From: a virus
Taxonomy: Duplodnaviria > Heunggongvirae > Uroviricota > Caudoviricetes
Direction: 5' to 3' (one strand)
Virus record (IMG/VR): IMGVR_UViG_2518645559_000002
Length of the DNA stretch: 12,574 nucleotides
Positions 1-7,477 of the stretch are shown piece after piece. Position numbers and translations under genes: made by a program. The notes under the pieces were generated by a model. It had not been told where the DNA came from. It saw only the letters and a list, made by a program, of their open reading frames with translations, and ran no database searches. Numbering within the stretch: position 1 is the stretch's first letter; every line of letters starts with the position of its first letter.

Positions 1-1248
1 ATGGCACTGAATATTCCATTCAGAAATGCGTACTATCGTTTTGCATCCAGTTACTCATTTCTCTTTTTTATTTCCTGGTCGCTGTGGTGGTCGTTATACG
101 CTATTTGGCTGAAAGGACATCTAGGGTTGACAGGGACGGAATTAGGTACACTTTATTCGGTCAACCAGTTTACCAGCATTCTATTTATGATGTTCTACGG
201 CATCGTTCAGGATAAACTCGGTCTGAAGAAACCGCTCATCTGGTGTATGAGTTTCATCCTGGTCTTGACCGGACCGTTTATGATTTACGTTTATGAACCG
301 TTACTGCAAAGCAATTTTTCTGTAGGTCTAATTCTGGGGGCGCTATTTTTTGGCTTGGGGTATCTGGCGGGATGCGGTTTGCTTGATAGCTTCACCGAAA
401 AAATGGCGCGAAATTTTCATTTCGAATATGGAACAGCGCGCGCCTGGGGATCTTTTGGCTATGCTATTGGCGCGTTCTTTGCCGGCATATTTTTTAGTAT
501 CAGTCCCCATATCAACTTCTGGTTGGTCTCGCTATTTGGCGCTGTATTTATGATGATCAACATGCGTTTTAAAGATAAGGATCACCAGTGCGTAGCGGCA
601 GATGCGGGAGGGGTAAAAAAAGAGGATTTTATCGCAGTTTTCAAGGATCGAAACTTCTGGGTTTTCGTCATATTTATTGTGGGGACGTGGTCTTTCTATA
701 ACATTTTTGATCAACAACTTTTTCCTGTCTTTTATTCAGGTTTATTCGAATCACACGATGTAGGAACGCGCCTGTATGGTTATCTCAACTCATTCCAGGT
801 GGTACTCGAAGCGCTGTGCATGGCGATTATTCCTTTCTTTGTGAATCGGGTAGGGCCAAAAAATGCATTACTTATCGGAGTTGTGATTATGGCGTTGCGT
901 ATCCTTTCCTGCGCGCTGTTCGTTAACCCCTGGATTATTTCATTAGTGAAGTTGTTACATGCCATTGAGGTTCCACTTTGTGTCATATCCGTCTTCAAAT
1001 ACAGCGTGGCAAACTTTGATAAGCGCCTGTCGTCGACGATCTTTCTGATTGGTTTTCAAATTGCCAGTTCGCTTGGGATTGTGCTGCTTTCAACGCCGAC
1101 TGGGATACTCTTTGACCACGCAGGCTACCAAACAGTTTTCTTCGCAATTTCGGGTATTGTCTGCCTGATGTTGCTATTTGGCATTTTCTTCTTGAGTAAA
1201 AAACGCGAGCAAATAGTTATGGAAACGCCTGTACCTTCAGCAATATAG
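1..1248 (+). CDS. cscB: Sucrose:H+ symporter, MFS oligosaccharide (LacY-type) permease, 415 aa, complete
   Basis: Full-length ORF from ATG at 1 to TAG at 1246-1248. Protein is hydrophobic with ~12 predicted membrane spans. N-terminus MALNIPFRNAYYRFASSYSFLFFISWSLWWSLYAIW matches my memory of E. coli CscB; not verified by search. Confidence 0.85.
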   Translation: MALNIPFRNAYYRFASSYSFLFFISWSLWWSLYAIWLKGHLGLTGTELGTLYSVNQFTSILFMMFYGIVQDKLGLKKPLIWCMSFILVLTGPFMIYVYEPLLQSNFSVGLILGALFFGLGYLAGCGLLDSFTEKMARNFHFEYGTARAWGSFGYAIGAFFAGIFFSISPHINFWLVSLFGAVFMMINMRFKDKDHQCVAADAGGVKKEDFIAVFKDRNFWVFVIFIVGTWSFYNIFDQQLFPVFYSGLFESHDVGTRLYGYLNSFQVVLEALCMAIIPFFVNRVGPKNALLIGVVIMALRILSCALFVNPWIISLVKLLHAIEVPLCVISVFKYSVANFDKRLSSTIFLIGFQIASSLGIVLLSTPTGILFDHAGYQTVFFAISGIVCLMLLFGIFFLSKKREQIVMETPVPSAI

Positions 1249-1256
1249 ACGTAAAC

Positions 1257-1301
1257 TTTTTCCGGTTGTTGTCGATAGCTCTATATCCCTCAACCGGAAA
1301 A
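1257..1301. other. Palindromic hairpin 3' of cscB (stem CCGGTTG/CAACCGG, 22-nt loop, flanked by T5 and A4); not a canonical rho-independent terminator on either strand
   Basis: Direct reading: tttttCCGGTTG(22 nt)CAACCGGaaaa. No U-tract follows the stem in either transcript orientation. Confidence 0.35.
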
Positions 1302-1689
1302 TAATAATAGTAAAATGCTTAGCCCTGCTAATAATCGCCTAATCCAAACGCCTCATTCATGTTCTGGTACAGTCGCTCAAATGTACTTCAGATGCGCGGT
1401 TCGCTGATTTCCAGGACATTGTCGTCATTCAGTGACCTGTCCCGTGTATCACGGTCCTGCGAATTCATCAAGGAATGCATTGCGGAGTGAAGTATCGAGT
1501 CACGCCATATTTCGCTATCAGGATTCTGTGTGATGGTTACATCGCCCGGCTCAGGGCTGTTTAGTCATCAGCGCTTTCTGACAGTGCTGAGATTTCAACC
1601 TGTTGCAGTAAAAATGAGTAGATATAAGGCAAGTGTGCTGCCAAACCCATCTTTTACGGGGTGAAGGTAGATTTCGTTTGAAGGGTATC

Positions 1690-1704
1690 TGGTGTCCCCT
1701 GCAG
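1690..1704 (-). other. attR-like core of the prophage: 15 nt identical to the 3' end of a tRNA (T-stem 3' strand, acceptor 3' strand, discriminator, CCA), consistent with argW tRNA-Arg
   Basis: Minus-strand sequence CTGCAGGGGACACCA reads as CCTGC-type T-stem 3' half + AGGGGAC acceptor + A + CCA. It lies at the boundary between the host flank (cscB side) and the first prophage gene (torI). Confidence 0.55.
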
Positions 1705-1777
1705 ACATCTACTTGAGGCGGCAGGGGATTGATTGGAATGGTGTTTTTTAGATGTGAGAAATATTTTACCCGCTATT

Positions 1778-1978
1778 TTACCCATTGGCGCGGCTTAAGA
1801 GCTTATTTTTGAATTCACAATGGTCACGATATAACCATCTTGCTCGCCCGTGGATAACTTTGGCTTTAGGCAGGTCTCCGGACTTAATCCGGTCATAGAT
1901 GAAGGTTTTACCGAAGCCAGTATCAGCCATGATGAATTTCAAATCAACCAGTGAATCAGGCTGTAGTTCGTGTTGCAT
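1778..1978 (-). CDS. torI: Excisionase / recombination directionality factor (AlpA/Xis-family winged-helix), 66 aa
   Basis: 66-aa ORF MQHELQPDSLVDLKFIMADTGFGKTFIYDRIKSGDLPKAKVIHGRARWLYRDHCEFKNKLLSRANG matches my memory of TorI of the KplE1 prophage. Position next to the att core fits. GGAG lies 9 nt upstream of the ATG. Confidence 0.8.
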   Translation of the reverse strand: MQHELQPDSLVDLKFIMADTGFGKTFIYDRIKSGDLPKAKVIHGRARWLYRDHCEFKNKLLSRANG

Positions 1979-1997
1979 GAGTGCTATCTCCGAATAG

Positions 1998-2013
1998 GGA
2001 ATCGAACCTGCAA
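1998..2013 (-). other. tRNA T-arm fragment (TTGCAGGTTCGATTCC on minus strand) immediately upstream of the torI start codon
   Basis: Minus-strand reading gives T-stem 5' half GCAGG + T-loop TTCGATT + CC. It is exactly contiguous in tRNA terms with the 1690-1704 fragment (1-nt overlap), but separated from it by 293 bp that contain torI. Confidence 0.5.
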
Positions 2014-2020
2014 ATCAGGC

Positions 2021-2044
2021 AATAAAAAACCGCCATCAGGCGGC
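2021..2044 (-). terminator. Rho-independent terminator for the minus-strand early operon
   Basis: Minus strand: CCGCC-TGAT-GGCGG stem-loop followed by TTTTTTATT. Sits between the last early gene (stop at 2110) and torI. Confidence 0.6.
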
Positions 2045-2109
2045 TTGGTGTTCTTTCAGTTCTTCAATTCGAATATTGGTTACATTGTTTTCATATATGA
2101 ATAAATAAA

Positions 2110-2289
2110 TTAGCTTTTTTCGTTGCCTTCGCGTTCTTTATTAATTTTAACAAACTCGTTTTTACCACGCTCTCCAAATGCGTCTTTAGAGTCGTTGTAT
2201 CCGCAATCGCAGCACACATAATCACCAGACCATCCACGCATTGTTTTTTCTTTTGCAATATTTCCAGAACCGCATTTTGGACAAGACAT
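2110..2289 (-). CDS. Small zinc-ribbon protein (CPKCG...CCDCG), 59 aa; function unknown, possibly Lar-like restriction-alleviation
   Basis: ORF MSCPKCGSGNIAKEKTMRGWSGDYVCCDCGYNDSK... with two CxxC pairs. GGAGG lies 7 nt upstream of the ATG at 2289. The track's longer 70-aa version lacks an RBS. Confidence 0.5.
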   Translation of the reverse strand: MSCPKCGSGNIAKEKTMRGWSGDYVCCDCGYNDSKDAFGERGKNEFVKINKEREGNEKS

Positions 2290-2385
2290 ATCACTACCTC
2301 CAAAGCATGAGTGAGATGACAACGTAACATTGATTGGAGATTAACAATAGATTGCTGATGTAAAAGATATGTATAAGCTTCGCTT

Positions 2386-3015
2386 TCAAAGTGGAGGCTC
2401 TGGTAGCGGCATCCAGTGTGACGGTTTCCACGACGCACCAGGAATTATCCACCCATCATTAGCGTCAGGATGACCCGGGATGTAAGTCGCCCATTTCATT
2501 CGCCAGTCACCTTTCCTGTCAAACTCCACGGCAACAAGAACGGCTGTTTTGGTATCCGGCATTCGCTCACTACAGCTTATCCAGCCATCCGGAGTTACCG
2601 GAGAGTTGCCGGGTTCTTTAATGTGCAAGCGAGGCTCACCATCTTTTGGTTCAGGCCACTGGCGTTCCATGTTGATCTTCAATTTATTTTCCATAGCAGC
2701 GGTAATTTCAGCATCACTGATACCAGCACGGCGCTGTGCATCCCACAACAGGAACTGCATATCAGCCCACTCGCTAAGATCGTCTGGTTCGGCTGCGGCT
2801 TCCAGTGCCTCTTTTGAGAGGTGTTTCAGTGGACCAATGGGGCCAACGCAGCCAAATGTGGAGTCAGACCATTTGGCATGCTCGTGGCGAATCTGTTCGC
2901 GTTCCAGTGATGCCAGTGCAATTCGTGCCAGTTCCATTTGTTCGCCACGAGTAAGCCCGTTTTCAAGCGGATTTTTAATGAACAATTCAATACGTTCTTT
3001 GGTAATAGTGGTCAT
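2386..3015 (-). CDS. Two-domain prophage protein: N-terminal MazG-like dATP/dGTP pyrophosphohydrolase-type domain (DUF550-like) plus C-terminal DUF551-like domain, 209 aa
   Basis: 209-aa ORF. Start ATG overlaps the stop of the upstream 69-aa gene (ATGA). N-terminal half is acidic and helical (EALEAAAEP...EWADMQFLLWD). C-terminal half (WISCSERMPD...VLVAVEF...WMPLPEPP) resembles DUF551 from memory. Confidence 0.6.
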   Translation of the reverse strand: MTTITKERIELFIKNPLENGLTRGEQMELARIALASLEREQIRHEHAKWSDSTFGCVGPIGPLKHLSKEALEAAAEPDDLSEWADMQFLLWDAQRRAGISDAEITAAMENKLKINMERQWPEPKDGEPRLHIKEPGNSPVTPDGWISCSERMPDTKTAVLVAVEFDRKGDWRMKWATYIPGHPDANDGWIIPGASWKPSHWMPLPEPPL

Positions 3016-3221
3016 GTGTTAATCCTCAAAACTTTATGCCCGGGCGCAAAAGTACGTGTTTTGTCTTTGCTTATTCGCCACCCGTCTTTACGGGCCTCTT
3101 TTGCACAACCAGACCATGACGTACCGATATACTCACCGAAGTCTGGCACTGGATATACACCTTCCGTACACTGGCGACAATCACAATAGAGATGCATGGT
3201 GTAACTTGCAGCGATAGCCAT
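3012..3221 (-). CDS. Small Cys-containing phage protein, 69 aa, unknown function
   Basis: ORF with strong SD (AAAGGAGAG) upstream of the ATG. Motif CDCRQC...C. Stop overlaps the start of the next gene (ATGA). Confidence 0.5.
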   Translation of the reverse strand: MAIAASYTMHLYCDCRQCTEGVYPVPDFGEYIGTSWSGCAKEARKDGWRISKDKTRTFAPGHKVLRINT

Positions 3222-3222
3222 A

Positions 3223-3411
3223 TCACTCTCCTTTAGTCCGCAAGTAGTTTTTCCAGCGGTTTTGCGCCGCGCTGGGCTTTTTGCAACAACTGTGACCCAT
3301 CACCCCGCAACACCCCATCAACCTCACTCGTCTGTTACTAATCCTCACCCATCGCCAGACCCCAACACCGTTTCTGCGAGCTAACAGAATCTTTGCTTTA
3401 CGGTTTTTCAT
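3223..3411 (-). CDS. Hypothetical basic Cys-rich small protein, 62 aa; coding status uncertain
   Basis: ORF with GGAGAG 7 nt upstream of the ATG. Protein is very Arg/Lys/Trp/Cys-rich and the DNA is compositionally odd (C-rich on + strand), so it may instead be regulatory or non-coding. Confidence 0.3.
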   Translation of the reverse strand: MKNRKAKILLARRNGVGVWRWVRISNRRVRLMGCCGVMGHSCCKKPSAAQNRWKNYLRTKGE

Positions 3412-3583
3412 CGTTTTGCTCTCCTGCGTCTCTTTGCTGCTCGTCGTGCCGCTGCAATACCGGTATGGCGGCGCTTTGGTGCCGGGATGATGTTGTCAGC
3501 TATCAGGACATGTGGCTTTGCAATTAGCGCAGAAGCCCAAAAACGAGTCGGGTACGGTAACAAGCCGATACATGCCACACGCA

Positions 3584-4255
3584 CTACTCACCCTCTTTGA
3601 TGCGAATGCCTGCGGCGCGTGGCACATTAACTTCCACGATGCGCACTGTTGGTTTGTACATCTCAATCGCTGTCAGCCAGTCAGCTCCTGTCATGCGCTT
3701 TTCCGCATCGCCATTAGTCCACTGAACCGGTACACCAATAGCCTTCATCGCGATTTCTATTTCCCCGGCAATGGCGCTTTTTCCGCAACCAGTAAAACCA
3801 GAAACAACGACAAGAACTTCACCTTTGGCTGGTTTTATTTCCCGTGCTTCCAGTTCTGCTATGCGCTTACTTCCATCCGAGATAACACCTTCGTAATACT
3901 TACGCTGCTCGTTGAGTTTTGATTTTGTCTCCTCAAGCTCAACACGCAGCTTCCCTACCGTTAGCGCAATGTCCTCGTTCTCCTGGTCGCGGCGTTTGAT
4001 ATATTGCTGGTTTCTTTCCCGTTCATCCAGCAGTGCCTGCACTACTTTAGGGTTGAAAGCTGCGATAAATTCTGCGTTGTTCTCTGCATTTTTCTGGCCG
4101 TCAAAGCCAGGCCATTTGATAATGTCTCCGCAACGTTCATCCCCCGGCGTATGCACCGCATATGTATCAGTGCCCGGCGAAATGAATGCGACCCATTCGC
4201 CCTGTGTTGCCTGTTTTGCTAACTCACGCAGTGCCTGATAGTCAATCTTGCTCAC
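3584..4255 (-). CDS. Ead/Ea22-like phage protein with central coiled-coil and C-terminal Walker-A-like motif (GFTGCGKS), 223 aa, GTG start
   Basis: GTG start preceded by AAAGGAGG and overlapping the upstream stop (GTGA). N-terminus [20 protein letters not shown]... is Ea22-like from memory. Middle is charged and heptad-like. C-terminus has [19 protein letters not shown]. Confidence 0.6.
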
Positions 4256-4419
4256 TGGTTGCCTCCTTTACGCCACATCGCATTCAGATATTTGTTTTGA
4301 TTCACTGATGGAAAAGAATTTCTCTTAAGCAATTCCTCTCTCGATGGCATTGGCTTTACGCGCTGGCGAATAATCATTTCTGCCGGAAGAATGCCGGGAT
4401 TGTATGCAAGTCCTCTCAT
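4252..4419 (-). CDS. Hypothetical small protein, 55 aa, translationally coupled
   Basis: ATG overlaps the stop of the upstream gene (ATGA); its stop overlaps the GTG of the downstream gene (GTGA). No recognisable family. Confidence 0.4.
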
Positions 4420-4706
4420 GATTTACTCTCCACGAACTGGTCAATAGCCATGCTAAGTGACACACCTAAAGTCTCGATATGCTGCTGAATATCCTGTAGC
4501 GTCTGCGCCTGAGATAACAGGATTTCACGGTTGCATAACTCTTTAACCAGATGCTCAAACTTGCTGTAATAACCGATACGACTTAGTGTTTCTTTCCCTG
4601 CATTCTCGTCTTCTTTGATAATTCCTCTTTCGCTAAGAATCAGATCGTGTTTTGTTCCGGTAATAACGTATTTTCCGAGGTCGATGTTTAGCTTCATTGT
4701 TTTCAT
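4416..4706 (-). CDS. Hypothetical phage early protein, 96 aa
   Basis: Start [14 protein letters not shown]... chosen at the ATG preceded by GAGGAA (6-nt spacing). The longer track ORF (147 aa) overlaps the upstream gene and lacks an RBS. Confidence 0.5.
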
Positions 4707-4716
4707 TGTTAATTCC

Positions 4717-5013
4717 TCAGTCATTACTGATAGCGCCATAGCGTGAGCGGTAATTACGCAGGCGCGGGTCGATATATTCAGGGAAGTGGGGGTATGTGGC
4801 TTTGCGGAATGGTCGGATTGATGTCTGGTAAATTCGCTCGCGTTCTTCTTTCTCTGCAAGCCATATACAATGGCGAAATTCCTTTTCCTCTTTCGTTTCC
4901 TGCGGTAGCGACATTATCAGGTCGTAGTTTTTCCTGAATTTATCCAGCACCTCCGATACGGAATTGCCGGAACAGCGGCGCGGGTCATCCGCACCATACA
5001 GAGGCGCTGGCAT
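4717..5013 (-). CDS. Hypothetical phage early protein, 98 aa; Abc-like anti-RecBCD role is speculative, based on position only
   Basis: ORF MPAPLYGADDPRRCSGNSVSEVLDKFRKNYDLIMS... with AAGGA upstream. Lies downstream of erf/ssb, as the abc genes do in P22. Confidence 0.5.
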   Translation of the reverse strand: MPAPLYGADDPRRCSGNSVSEVLDKFRKNYDLIMSLPQETKEEKEFRHCIWLAEKEERERIYQTSIRPFRKATYPHFPEYIDPRLRNYRSRYGAISND

Positions 5014-5036
5014 AATTAAATCCTTATTTTTCTAAA

Positions 5037-5420
5037 TCAGAATGGGATGGAATCGTCGTATACAGGAGTGTTCTGCTGGTTACTACTTTGCTGCTGCGGG
5101 CTGTTTCCTGAAGTTGCAAATCCAATCTTTGCATTCAGTAATTCAAGAGTGATGGATTGACCATTTTGCCCCTGATAAACATCAACCCTGATGTTTTCTC
5201 CGGTAATTTCCACAATGCCACCTTCAACAAGAACACTACGGTAGTAATCCGCTTGCGCTCCCGGCTTGGCAAATACAACGGTGCTGTAGTTTGTCCATTC
5301 TTTCTTTTTTGTCTGGCGATCGTAATACTGAACGCCAGCACGGATGTTGAATCCGATATTTTCCCCGGCCTGAAACTCTCTTGCGGGCTTGTTTAGTCTT
5401 ACAGTAATCGAATGTGCCAT
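5037..5420 (-). CDS. ssb: Phage-type single-stranded DNA-binding protein, 127 aa
   Basis: C-terminal tail ...PVYDDSIPF (DDxIPF SSB signature) preceded by a Q/S/N-rich linker. Start ATG overlaps the erf stop (TAATG). Confidence 0.7.
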   Translation of the reverse strand: MAHSITVRLNKPAREFQAGENIGFNIRAGVQYYDRQTKKKEWTNYSTVVFAKPGAQADYYRSVLVEGGIVEITGENIRVDVYQGQNGQSITLELLNAKIGFATSGNSPQQQSSNQQNTPVYDDSIPF

Positions 5421-6025
5421 TAAGCAGCAGCTCCTTCTAATTCGTCTCGTCTGATGTTGTAAACGTCCTGCGCTTTGTGCTGCTCCGGTGTGCCTTCGAG
5501 CATCTTCCACGCTTTGGCGAACGCCTGTTTAAGCTCTTCCACGGTGTTTTTCTGCAATGCTGCGTCAGTGAATGCTTTTAGAACCTGTTCAGGTGTAGGT
5601 GATGGTTTTGATTGCTTTGCTGCTGCGTTCTGCTGATGTTTATGCTCGTCGGTATCTGCATCTTTCGCATCATCAATGCCGAACAAACCATTGAGGCAAT
5701 ACTTGCGTGCATAAGAGCTTGTAGCTCCCGTAACTTGTGCAGAATCCATTCCTTTCTTGCTTTCTTCCTCTCGTGCAAGAGCGGTTGCCGTATGACTGTT
5801 TTCGCCATCGGTAATAGTTGCCGTGGCTTTCACGTAATACCGATCACCAATCAACACAACTTCATCGCTGATTGATAAAAACAGGCCATTCAGTAACGGC
5901 TTAACGCCTTCAAGAATGTCTTCGCAGCTTCTGTATTTATATTTACCGAATGAGTTGTACTGATTCTTTGGCGCGTTCAAGTTCTCCTGAATAGCTGCCA
6001 GTCTTGCGTAAAATTCTTTGCTCAT
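5420..6025 (-). CDS. erf: ERF-family single-strand annealing recombinase (P22 Erf-like), 201 aa
   Basis: MSKEFYARLAAIQENLNAPKNQYNSFGKYKYRSCEDILEGVKPLL... matches my memory of the P22 Erf N-terminus. Start taken at MSKEF rather than the track's upstream Met at 6055. Confidence 0.75.
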   Translation of the reverse strand: MSKEFYARLAAIQENLNAPKNQYNSFGKYKYRSCEDILEGVKPLLNGLFLSISDEVVLIGDRYYVKATATITDGENSHTATALAREEESKKGMDSAQVTGATSSYARKYCLNGLFGIDDAKDADTDEHKHQQNAAAKQSKPSPTPEQVLKAFTDAALQKNTVEELKQAFAKAWKMLEGTPEQHKAQDVYNIRRDELEGAAA

Positions 6026-6114
6026 ATGTTTGTTCTCAGAATGGGCATGGCCCAAGGAAATAACGCTGATTTAATACTTCAGTCTTTGCCGCATTTAAAA
6101 AGACGCGAACACCT

Positions 6115-6285
6115 TCACGATCTCCCTTCTGGCGATACATTAACGCCTGCTGCGTGTACATGCGTCTCTGTAACTTGCTCTCCTTCACGGTGGTTGCAAG
6201 TGACATGAATATCTCCTTCGTTACCGAATAATTCTTTCATCTGACGAATGAATTCTTCGTCTGACCAGTTATCTGTAAAGCTCAT
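6115..6285 (-). CDS. Hypothetical small acidic protein, 56 aa (position suggests an Arf-like accessory recombination gene; speculative)
   Basis: ATG preceded by AGGA and overlapping the stop of the upstream gene (ATGA). Lies immediately upstream of erf. Confidence 0.45.
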   Translation of the reverse strand: MSFTDNWSDEEFIRQMKELFGNEGDIHVTCNHREGEQVTETHVHAAGVNVSPEGRS

Positions 6286-6434
6286 TTCCTGCGATACCAT
6301 GGAAGGTTGATAGCTGATTTCATCGCTTTATTTGCTTCAAGCCACATTTTTGAATCACCAATAAATCTGGCTATTACTGCTTTGTTCTGTGCAGCACGAA
6401 GCATCTGGTGATTGATGGCTATTTCATTGCGCAT
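6282..6434 (-). CDS. Kil-like small protein, 50 aa (candidate FtsZ-inhibitor/host-killing function)
   Basis: ORF MRNEIAINHQMLRAAQNKAVIARFIGDSKMWLEANKAMKSAINLPWYRRK. The FIGDxKM motif and position just after cIII recall lambda Kil; weak, memory-based. Confidence 0.4.
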   Translation of the reverse strand: MRNEIAINHQMLRAAQNKAVIARFIGDSKMWLEANKAMKSAINLPWYRRK

Positions 6435-6550
6435 AATAAGACCTCAACTCTTTTCCATCCGTCACGTAATTTACGGGTGATTCGTTCAAGTAAAGATTCA
6501 TTTAATTGGAAGGCACCCATGCGAGCGCCTCCCGCGATTGCGTAAATCAT
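6419..6550 (-). CDS. c3: CIII-like FtsH (HflB) protease inhibitor, 43 aa
   Basis: MIYAIAGGARMGAFQLNESLLERITRKLRDGWKRVEVLLCAMK. Core ESLLERITRKLRDGWKR matches lambda CIII from memory. AAGGA lies 8 nt upstream of the ATG. Confidence 0.65.
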   Translation of the reverse strand: MIYAIAGGARMGAFQLNESLLERITRKLRDGWKRVEVLLCAMK

Positions 6551-6574
6551 GGGTGGTTCCTTATGTTGGTTTTA

Positions 6575-6724
6575 TTAGTAGGTTATTTTTGTTGCGAATA
6601 CTTCGCCTTTTACGATGGCTGTTATGATATTTTTAGCAACATCTTCTGATGCACCAACCTTGATAAGGTCAGCAAGTATTTTGTTATTTACTTCTTTCCG
6701 GTGAGCTTTATCCTTTGCTCTACG
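6575..6724 (-). pseudogene. 3' remnant (49 codons) of a minus-strand gene whose 5' part is removed at the IS1 junction
   Basis: Open frame runs without a start codon from the IS1 left end to the stop at 6575-6577 (...ILADLIKVGASEDVAKNIITAIVKGEVFATKITY*). Confidence 0.4.
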
Positions 6725-6779
6725 GGTGATGCTGCCAACTTACTGATTTAGTGTATGATGGTGTTTTTGAGGTGCTCCA

Positions 6780-7055
6780 GTGGCTTCTGTTTCTATCAGC
6801 TGTCCCTCCTGTTCAGCTACTGACGGGGTGGTGCGTAACGGCAAAAGCACCGCCGGACATCAGCGCTATCTCTGCTCTCACTGCCGTAAAACATGGCAAC
6901 TGCAGTTCACTTACACCGCTTCTCAACCCGGTACGCACCAGAAAATCATTGATATGGCCATGAATGGCGTTGGATGCCGGGCAACCGCCCGCATTATGGG
7001 CGTTGGCCTCAACACGATTTTCCGCCATTTAAAAAACTCAGGCCGCAGTCGGTAA
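6780..7055 (+). CDS. insA: IS1 InsA (transposition regulator; N-terminal part of the InsAB' transposase), 91 aa
   Basis: [43 protein letters not shown]... Starts 55 nt into the element, as in IS1. Confidence 0.85.
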
Positions 7056-7477
7056 CCTCGCGCATACAGCCGGGCAGTGACGTCATCGTCTGCGCGGAAA
7101 TGGACGAACAGTGGGGATACGTCGGGGCTAAATCGCGCCAGCGCTGGCTGTTTTACGCGTATGACAGGCTCCGGAAGACGGTTGTTGCGCACGTATTCGG
7201 TGAACGCACTATGGCGACGCTGGGGCGTCTTATGAGCCTGCTGTCACCCTTTGACGTGGTGATATGGATGACGGATGGCTGGCCGCTGTATGAATCCCGC
7301 CTGAAGGGAAAGCTGCACGTAATCAGCAAGCGATATACGCAGCGAATTGAGCGGCATAACCTGAATCTGAGGCAGCACCTGGCACGACTGGGACGGAAGT
7401 CGCTGTCGTTCTCAAAATCGGTGGAGCTGCATGACAAAGTCATCGGGCATTATCTGAACATAAAACACTATCAATAA
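6974..7477 (+). CDS. insB: IS1 InsB reading frame (fused to InsA by -1 frameshift to give the transposase)
   Basis: 167-aa ORF overlapping the insA 3' end in the -1 frame; ...[21 protein letters not shown]... typical of IS1 InsB. Confidence 0.85.

Follow-up and report, generated by a model that had tools for sequence, protein, structure and literature searches.

A probable promoterless early-left operon in a defective argW prophage of Escherichia coli O104:H4

Early-left operons of lambdoid phages and the argW block

The early-left region of phage P22 has the order c3-kil-arf-erf-abc1-abc2-orf56-eaE...eaD-eaI-eaA-eaG-(terminator)-eaC-xis-int, and the early-left regions of HK97, HK022, HK633 and Sf101 carry the HK75-type Rec module made up of Erf, SSB-1b and Abc2 (PMC12315714). 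The analysis presented here concerns a block of genes at positions 2110-6550 of a 12,574-nt stretch of viral DNA (IMG/VR record IMGVR_UViG_2518645559_000002; the whole stretch is referred to as the window), in which the gene order and orientation of P22 recur. The block is very probably an early-left (PL) operon, left without its promoter, that belongs to a P22/Sf6/HK620-like prophage at argW. Judged from its sequence, the window is a P22/Sf6/HK620-like lambdoid defective prophage at argW in E. coli O104:H4; the 12.6 kb are 100% identical to the chromosome of O104:H4 strain FDAARGOS_348, bases 1-7492 are a 100% match to the O104:H4 strains of the 2011 outbreak, and the argW tRNA site is also the location of KplE1/CPS-53 in K-12, as seen from the RefSeq annotation and from our own scans.

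Gene by gene, the block can be mapped one to one onto P22 c3-kil-arf-erf-abc2-orf56-eaD-eaA-eaG and onto HK97 gp38, gp40 and gp42. The likeness to P22 extends to the junctions, with the same 1-nt, 4-nt and longer overlaps and an identical 96-nt gap before eaG, and the leader, open reading frame (ORF) and terminator of eaG share approximately 98% DNA identity with those of P22. However, an SSB-1b gene stands here where P22 has abc1, Kil is of the lambda type and not P22 Kil, and both a DUF5405 gene and the genes orf58-orf62-orf69 are extra in the window. The excisionase gene is of the torI type with int on the far side of att, which is the KplE1/HK620 arrangement, and nothing is left in the block of PL, gene 24 (N), ral, 17 or whatever else lay upstream as far as IS1.

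Among other described systems, HK633 accounts for 58% of the block at 97% identity and has the same order, cIII-kil-two overlapping ORFs-erf-gp40-abc2-DUF2737-ea22; because none of the sequenced phages in the collection exceeds this coverage, the block is best described as a mosaic. In lambda and the Stx phages, the exo-xis region (orf60a, orf63, orf61, orf73, ea22, ea8.5, orf55) likewise lies between the recombination genes and xis and has an Ead/Ea22-family gene in common with the block, but the block is devoid of homologues of orf60a, orf61, orf63, orf73, ea8.5 and orf55, and has Erf and Abc2 in place of Exo, Bet and Gam. Rac (kilR-ydaE-racC-recE-recT-ralR(lar)-rcbA-xisR-intR) is likewise an early-left operon of lambdoid type that has decayed, and it encodes a division inhibitor, a recombination module and, close to xis, a small C4 zinc ribbon (Lar/RalR, 64 amino acids); its recombination genes, however, are unrelated, and no RalA-like antisense RNA was detected in the window with Rfam. 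KplE1/CPS-53 occupies the same argW site and resembles the present prophage in its uncoupled intS/torI recombination module and in being a remnant devoid of a repressor, whereas the genes retained are different: K-12 has kept gtr and yfdK-T, and what O104:H4 has kept is the early-left operon together with a truncated tailspike and the gene of an AT3-SGNH acyltransferase.

The order cIII-kil-(arf)-single-strand annealing protein-(SSB)-anti-RecBCD-'ea' genes-xis, with every gene pointing the same way, is that of an early-left operon, and in this respect the original prediction of an early operon is borne out. That prediction had counted thirteen co-directional minus-strand genes with six tight junctions; the direction, the coordinates and the coupling hold, but with starts set by RefSeq and homologues there are 15 ORFs, all on the minus strand as are the genes of the block described below, and eight junctions that consist of a 4-nt or 1-nt overlap or a 1-nt gap, plus one overlap of 16 nt (cIII/kil). 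Four are ATGA overlaps (kil/orf56a, DUF5405/DUF2737, orf58/orf62 and orf69/EaA-like), and the remainder are one GTGA overlap (DUF2737/ea22), one TAATG (erf/ssb), one TAGTG (ea22/orf58) and a 1-nt gap (orf62/orf69). A Shine-Dalgarno motif lies 7-13 nt 5' of nearly every start. Such an overlap-rich layout is not unusual, the early-left operon of P22 having the same mix. Sigma-70-like sites are fewer in the block than expected (3 versus 9.3 +/- 3.0), as would be the case for a single long operon.

The block is closed by a Rho-independent terminator hairpin with a T-run, found on the minus strand at 2027-2046 by a terminator scan, after which the xis leader follows; no Rfam family of non-coding RNA reached its gathering threshold in the window. 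A segment of about 65 nt (window 2016-2083, hairpin AAGCCGCCTGATGGCGGTTTTTTATTG) recurs at 97-100% identity in over 130 lambdoid phages, among them lambda, 434, 933W and further Stx phages as well as P22 and HK620, and always sits just upstream of xis; against lambda positions 29098-29165 the identity is 97%. The P22 record annotates a terminator at the position of the hairpin, and the HK620 record annotates a cII-activated promoter directly after the segment. Hairpin, T-run and conservation together place a terminator before xis, where an early-left operon would be expected to end.

From this arrangement, the parent phage would have made an N-antiterminated PL transcript running from cIII through kil, the arf-like/orf56 genes, erf, ssb and abc2 into the 'ea' genes and eaG, and stopping at a terminator of the tL3 type that immediately precedes the torI-type xis. 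The stop/start overlaps and the near-universal Shine-Dalgarno sites would couple translation along this long mRNA.

Replacement of the promoter region by IS1

The loss of PL and N from the operon went unnoticed in the original prediction. An IS1 element of the IS1B family (6725-7492, plus strand; RefSeq, with homology breakpoints at 6724 and 7492) stands in place of PL, N and the immunity, replication and lysis genes. Between IS1 and cIII lies the C-terminal remnant of an Sf6 gp33-like ('TolA'-named) early-left gene (6575-6724, minus strand), which is a RefSeq pseudogene cut by IS1, and this truncated gene directly adjoins IS1 in all of the O104:H4 genomes inspected. The right flank of IS1 is not constant: in the outbreak strain it leads into late genes starting before terminase, and in the strain of the window into a truncated tailspike. 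As the right-hand junction of the outbreak lineage differs in this way, the strain of the window has evidently undergone a further IS1-adjacent deletion.

The ancestry of the block is seen in E. coli NCCP15648 (NZ_CP009050.1, 2966000-2976500), in which the operon is 100% identical over window positions 1-6724 and IS1 is absent. Upstream of the operon, this strain has the full gp33-like gene (969 nt, also present as HK633 gp41), a LexA-family repressor, cro, cII, DnaB-type helicase/replication genes, nin and Q, and its prophage appears to be the intact parent. Because the operon of NCCP15648 runs into this intact upstream region, the block can be regarded as the PL operon of a once-complete lambdoid prophage; PL, N (gene 24) and the repressor, which would be expected just upstream of the operon, are not present in the window and, given that the sister strain has them, were lost here.

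A promoter scan found no sigma-70-like site upstream of cIII. With IS1 standing in for PL, N and all else as far as the tailspike, most likely the operon is not expressed, or only at a leaky level; all of its ORFs are nevertheless intact. It might instead be supposed that the block has been domesticated as a cryptic-prophage module which benefits the host and is driven from a promoter other than PL. All 15 ORFs are indeed intact and identical across the O104:H4 genomes despite the loss of the early region, and cryptic prophages including CPS-53 are reported to aid the stress tolerance of K-12 (PMC3105296; PMC4776307). However, the isolates of O104:H4 form a clone, and over 6.7 kb the sister prophage, which is intact, shows 100% identity. 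It follows that the deletion is a recent event and that selection need not be invoked for the ORFs to be whole; together with the blank promoter scan upstream of cIII, this makes domestication very unlikely.

Abc2, the recombination module and the small accessory genes

The original prediction had taken the position of the operon as a sign of plausible counter-defence genes, and this proved correct once, for a 98-amino-acid protein which it had itself left without an assignable function; for the rest it was a generic guess. On the strength of its sequence, the protein is Abc2, the known anti-RecBCD protein 2 (4717-5013). It matches Pfam Anti-RecBCD_p2 (PF11043) at 4.5e-62 (206.7 bits against a cutoff of 25), residues 1-98 aligning to profile positions 1-97, it is 93% identical to P22 Abc2, and it matches PDB entry 8B1T (8b1t_A, 1.3e-56). 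From the 93% identity we infer that the protein would bind RecC and modify RecBCD.

Upstream of abc2, and TAATG-coupled to erf, is the gene of a 127-amino-acid protein (5037-5420) called an SSB in the original prediction, a call which is right in kind. The protein matches PHROG 44 ('SSB') at 3.7e-27 and is 96% identical to HK97 gp40; no Pfam SSB family was matched at E<=0.1, and the best PDB SSB match, to 4dam, is weak (E 0.21). Its C-terminus, ...SGNSPQQQSSNQQNTPVYDDSIPF, ends in YDDSIPF and so fits the pattern of a disordered linker with an acidic D-D-x-I-P-F partner-binding tip. The C-terminus of E. coli SSB is DDDIPF. HK97 gp40 has been classed as SSB-1b from its SSB-like AlphaFold 3 fold, and Abc2, SSB and Erf form a described Rec module of the HK75 type (PMC12315714). 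The 127-amino-acid protein is thus placed as a probable divergent SSB of the HK97 gp40 (SSB-1b) type and a putative binder of single-stranded DNA. With Erf and Abc2 it would make up a recombination module of the HK75/HK97 type, the part of Abc2 being to bind RecC and so redirect RecBCD.

The other members that had been recognised from the sequence are also confirmed. The cIII gene (6419-6550), encoding an FtsH inhibitor and lysogeny factor, matches Pfam Lambda_CIII at 4e-15 and is 72% identical to P22 C3; kil (6282-6434), encoding an inhibitor of FtsZ and division, matches Lambda_Kil at 1.7e-20; and erf (5420-6025), encoding the single-strand annealing protein, matches Pfam ERF at 2.1e-44 with 75% identity to P22 Erf. 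By homology, cIII would block FtsH and Kil would block FtsZ.

Between kil and erf are two genes for proteins of 56 amino acids which overlap by 92 nt in different frames. The acidic orf56a (6115-6285; PHROG 2123 at 2.6e-38) is ATGA-coupled to kil, stands in the position of P22 arf and has an SDEEFI motif in common with P22 Arf; it is not annotated by RefSeq. The basic, Sf6 gp29-like orf56b (6036-6206; PHROG 1723 at 4.5e-34; RefSeq WP_000050554.1) has a strong AAGGAG Shine-Dalgarno site, and its divergence between alleles is amino-acid-conservative. In the HK97 record, two extra nucleotides join the N-terminus of orf56a to the C-terminus of orf56b to give gp42.1 (83 amino acids). A programmed frameshift was considered and rejected, as a +1/-2 shift would be needed here and no evidence for one was found; we therefore regard the HK97-type fusion as a variant at the level of allele or sequence.

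The small proteins that remain (DUF5405, DUF2737, orf58, orf62, orf69 and EaG) come from accessory genes which are conserved and mobile among phage early regions. Those of 96, 55 and 59 amino acids and a Cys-containing one of 69 had been left unassigned in the original prediction; the first three now have family names (DUF5405, DUF2737 and EaG respectively), and orf69 does lack a Pfam family, as do the members of its wider family. The DUF5405 protein (4416-4706) has 93 amino acids from the ATG at 4697 or 96 from that at 4706, the latter having the better Shine-Dalgarno site, and its PF17399 score of 26.0 is above the gathering threshold of 21.6. Its structural neighbours in a library of viral proteins are either DUF5405 members or uncharacterised, and come from phages that infect Gram-negative or Gram-positive hosts; the label 'replication initiation protein' (PHROG 154, phiKT) was found to be unsupported. 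The basic DUF2737 protein of 55 amino acids (4252-4419), which corresponds to P22 orf56 and HK97 gp38, scores 109.2 against a threshold of 25 for PF10930 (9.1e-32) and is 78% identical to P22 orf56 and 92% identical to HK97 gp38. A literature search found no functional study of either family.

The Ead/Ea22-like protein (3584-4255; 223 amino acids, GTG start) matches Pfam Ead_Ea22 (PF13935) over residues 2-136 at 4e-45, with 154.2 bits against a cutoff of 27, and its N-terminus is 71% identical to P22 EaD. Residues 130-223 (window 3587-3868) include a Walker-A-like GFTGCGKS and, after it, a hydrophobic strand that ends in E (TVRIVEVN). A P-loop NTPase was considered for this C-terminal domain and rejected, the matches being non-significant (Pfam E 0.03-0.04, PDB E >= 0.05); at approximately 90 amino acids, the domain is below the canonical P-loop domain length. 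The EaA-like protein (2386-3015; 209 amino acids) has DUF550 (PF04447, 3.5e-42, 143 bits against 23) and DUF551 (PF04448, 5.5e-21, 75.6 against 22) in one ORF, both above threshold, and aligns in frame with P22 EaA from residue 1 at 61% identity with two in-frame deletions. RefSeq/PGAP divides this ORF into a coding sequence of 150 amino acids and a pseudogene fragment. Strong homology predicts that the EaA-like protein carries a MazG-type dATP/dGTP pyrophosphohydrolase domain; within DUF550, this activity is known only for a distant member from an Acinetobacter phage (PMC12884076). YfdS, a DUF551 protein of the K-12 argW prophage, has when oversupplied a part in the inhibition of replication initiation (PMC4776307). 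Ea22 is pro-lysogenic in lambda and Stx phages, and other exo-xis genes alter the lysis-lysogeny decision (PMC7093339; PMC3824215; PMC8614690). As Ea22 is known as a pro-lysogenic exo-xis gene, roles in the developmental decision or the nucleotide pool are at least as likely for the Ea22-like and EaA-like proteins as counter-defence.

Directly after ea22 comes a trio of small genes. Orf58 (3408-3584; 58 amino acids, isoelectric point 12.0, Arg-rich tail) matches PHROG 13831 at 8.1e-41; orf62 (3223-3411; 62 amino acids, basic, isoelectric point 11.7) matches PHROG 1380 at 9.1e-32; and orf69 (3012-3221; 69 amino acids) has an invariant YCDCxxC ... APxH motif which is a probable zinc site. RefSeq is blank at 3222-3583, so that orf58 and orf62 are unannotated, and both are translationally coupled. 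The trio is intact in the Stx2 phage VT2-Sakai, directly after ea22 and at 85% DNA identity, and in the epsilon15-like phage phiV10; phage Dewey has orf58 and orf62, the P1-like phage D6 has orf62 and orf69, and a 9NA-like phage has orf62. In the VT2-Sakai record the trio is annotated wrongly, its orf7 and orf8 being other frames. The motifs at the two ends of orf62 are kept around a variable middle, with protein-level conservation in Sakai, Dewey, D6 and AVIO78A, and pN/pS against the phages that carry these genes is approximately 0.45 for orf62 and 0.25 for orf69; these comparisons indicate that orf62 is conserved as a protein across phages and, with the wide family of orf69 described below, speak for orf62 and orf69 being genuine genes. 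Orf58 and orf62, being rich in Arg and Lys, are probably nucleic-acid-binding, and orf69 and EaG probably bind zinc.

A word-indexed search with orf69 returned enterobacterial relatives only, and a profile search of 1.84 billion representatives returned 328 clusters at 50% identity, nearly all of them stand-alone proteins of 60-80 amino acids with the consensus MIxxGYxxxLYCDCxxC...GW(R)IS.D...CxAPxH. The predicted fold of orf69 is confident, and no match to it was found among solved structures. In Kosakonia and Pantoea prophages, orf69 lies in the nin region of the early-right operon beside DUF551 genes, and is therefore a floating accessory gene and not a fixed part of the left operon. Homologues of orf69 and orf62 repeatedly adjoin DUF550 or DUF551 genes (Kosakonia, Pantoea, D6, phiV10), whether in the early-left or the nin region, which suggests that orf62, orf69 and DUF550/DUF551 genes form a loosely linked mobile accessory cluster. 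One distant, single family member, P0207 (132 amino acids), has a C-terminal CxxC...CPxC...EAIFSWNK fusion that is Lar-like by eye, and has no Pfam match at E<=0.01.

EaG (2110-2289), the last gene of the block, encodes a C4 zinc ribbon of 59 amino acids that is 95% identical to P22 EaG and is preceded by the conserved 96-nt leader, in which no promoter-like site was detected. The eaG cassette (window 2016-2385: leader, ORF and 3' hairpin) shares approximately 98-99.8% DNA identity with HK633, HK620 and P22, and its neighbours are far more diverged, EaA being at 61% amino-acid identity; the cassette behaves like a recently spread or nucleotide-constrained unit.

There is the possibility that at least one of DUF5405, DUF2737, orf58, orf62, orf69 and EaG is a counter-defence factor, either Lar/Ral-like or another inhibitor of immunity. 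Abc2, Gam, Ral and Lar are classically encoded in this region, and the first of them is found in the block; P22 abc1, beside abc2, has defence-related phenotypes (bioRxiv 10.1101/2023.04.06.535777); and the genes are small, fast-moving and present in many unrelated phage types. EaG has the size of the Rac Lar/RalR protein, adjoins xis as ralR does and fits the pattern of a four-Cys zinc ribbon of about 60 amino acids with CPxCG...CxxC; its Cys residues are C3, C6, C26/C27 and C29, those of RalR (64 amino acids) being C9, C12, C30 and C33. Nine of 13 EaG homologues have sub-threshold matches to Lar_restr_allev, and hhalign pairs EaG with K-12 RalR at an E-value of 6e-4 over 53 columns. However, the hhalign probability is 28%, EaG itself scores 23.4 bits against PF14354, below the cutoff of 28.6, and reaches 21.2 bits with the HVO_2753 archaeal zinc ribbon, and among the 13 homologues the best E-value is 6.1e-5 for Lar and 1.5e-5 for the unrelated HVO_2753. 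After its ribbon RalR has the helix EALERWNKR, where EaG has KDAFGERGKNEF, without a Trp. EaG was accordingly rejected as a Lar family member, the evidence from Pfam (for the protein and the 13 homologues), hhalign and BLASTP being sub-threshold or non-specific; it is because the Trp helix is absent that EaG is not filed as Lar despite its Lar-like size, C4 pattern and xis-adjacent position. EaG may be regarded as the only concrete, and weak, anti-restriction lead.

For the block as a whole, none of the remaining small proteins reached the threshold of a known anti-defence family, NCBIfam gave nothing above cutoff, and PADLOC, whose models are of defence and not of anti-defence genes, gave no match for ten proteins. 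Six peptide strings, taken from DUF5405, orf69, EaG, orf62, DUF2737 and Kil, were all absent from the supplementary files of the phage accessory-gene screen. A counter-defence role for any of the six proteins is considered unlikely on this balance, and the anti-defence idea is right for Abc2 only; for the other small proteins the evidence speaks neither for nor against it.

An alternative which can be entertained tentatively, and which is at least as plausible for these proteins as counter-defence, is that they modulate the lysis-lysogeny decision or host physiology in the manner of the exo-xis genes, through transcription, replication initiation or nucleotide pools. It is in keeping with this that orf58, orf62 and orf69 are directly downstream of ea22 in VT2-Sakai, as are the pro-lysogenic effect of Ea22, the shifts caused by further exo-xis genes, the part of YfdS in replication-initiation inhibition and the pyrophosphohydrolase activity of DUF550 cited above. 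However, no direct homology of the six proteins to characterised exo-xis proteins was found, and the exo-xis phenotypes are themselves mechanistically unexplained.

Several points limit or weigh against the account of the block as an intact early-left operon cut off from its promoter. A weak sigma-70-like site at 6279-6252 lies inside the operon, and an IS1-derived or internal promoter could drive expression. The terminator is presumed, from its position, to be of lambda's tL3 type. Fold searches on DUF5405, DUF2737, orf58, orf62, orf69 and EaG gave nothing decisive. The C-terminal tail of orf56a differs between alleles in length and sequence and is not conserved, and orf58 has no synonymous and seven non-synonymous differences to its counterpart in phage Dewey; orf58 and the tail of orf56a are for now candidate coding sequences.

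The last two observations, the blank RefSeq/PGAP annotation at 3222-3583, the omission of orf56a, the split 209-amino-acid ORF and the defective state of the prophage would all be expected if chance frames or decayed remnants were to be seen in orf58, in orf56a or its tail alone, or in the first 59 codons of the 209-amino-acid ORF. Nevertheless, all of them have Shine-Dalgarno sites and coupled starts, with PHROG matches of 1e-31 to 1e-41, orf58 stays in frame through a 21-nt (7-amino-acid) deletion in Sakai, the 209-amino-acid ORF aligns in frame with P22 EaA starting at residue 1, and the same sequences are present in the viable phages HK633, Sf101, P22 and Sakai. That these frames are spurious is therefore doubtful, and the early-left operon of an argW prophage remains the preferred description of the block.

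Prophage boundaries and meaning of the block

The left end of the window is occupied by cscB (1-1248), followed by the attR core (1690-1704, no strand assigned), a duplicate of the argW 3' end that consists of an exact 15-mer which the tRNA-Arg gene also has at its 3' end. It comprises 15 of the 16 nt of the KplE1 core CTGCAGGGGACACCAT (PMC2951348). The torI-type excisionase gene (xis; 1778-1978, minus strand), identified from RefSeq TorI, HK633 gp27 and PMC2951348, lies between this site and the terminator, and intS ... torI with att between them is the known arrangement of KplE1, HK620 and Sf6 (PMC2951348). On the other side of IS1, the tailspike ORF (7495-9207, plus strand; 570 amino acids) begins 2 nt past the end of the element. 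Of the 113 profile positions that make up the head-binding domain, it keeps only 90-113, the last 24; the ORF is a remnant truncated at its N-terminus, and its ATG is fortuitous. The AT3-SGNH acyltransferase gene (9278-11200, minus strand; 640 amino acids) is found between the tailspike and intS, the latter being located beyond it at the right of the window. It occupies the position of the O-antigen-modifying genes (oac/gtr) in Sf6, P22 and KplE1, and is presumably a serotype-converting O-acetylase which the remnant has retained.

Taken as it stands, the result matters little: the block is an ordinary, already annotated prophage early-left operon of textbook type in a heavily sequenced pathogen, every gene belongs to an existing family, and Abc2 is known. 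Its value is corrective, in that the 'unassigned' protein of 98 amino acids is a known RecBCD hijacker, and in that RefSeq omits orf58 and orf62 and splits the EaA-like gene. Because the O104:H4 copy of the operon lacks its own promoter, any phenotype should be looked for in a relative that is intact, for instance the prophage of NCCP15648, HK633 or P22.

The prospect that at least one of the unassigned mobile small proteins is a new host-targeting factor, for anti-defence or host takeover, is a slim one. The best candidates would be the orf58-orf62-orf69 trio, and orf69 above all, with EaG, as a possible divergent restriction alleviator of the Lar type, coming second. The trio moves as a unit among lambdoid Stx, P22-like, epsilon15-like and P1-like phages, often beside DUF550/DUF551 genes. 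If orf69, DUF5405 or EaG were to target a host system, which is at present only a prior expectation, hundreds of phage genes would be annotated at once.

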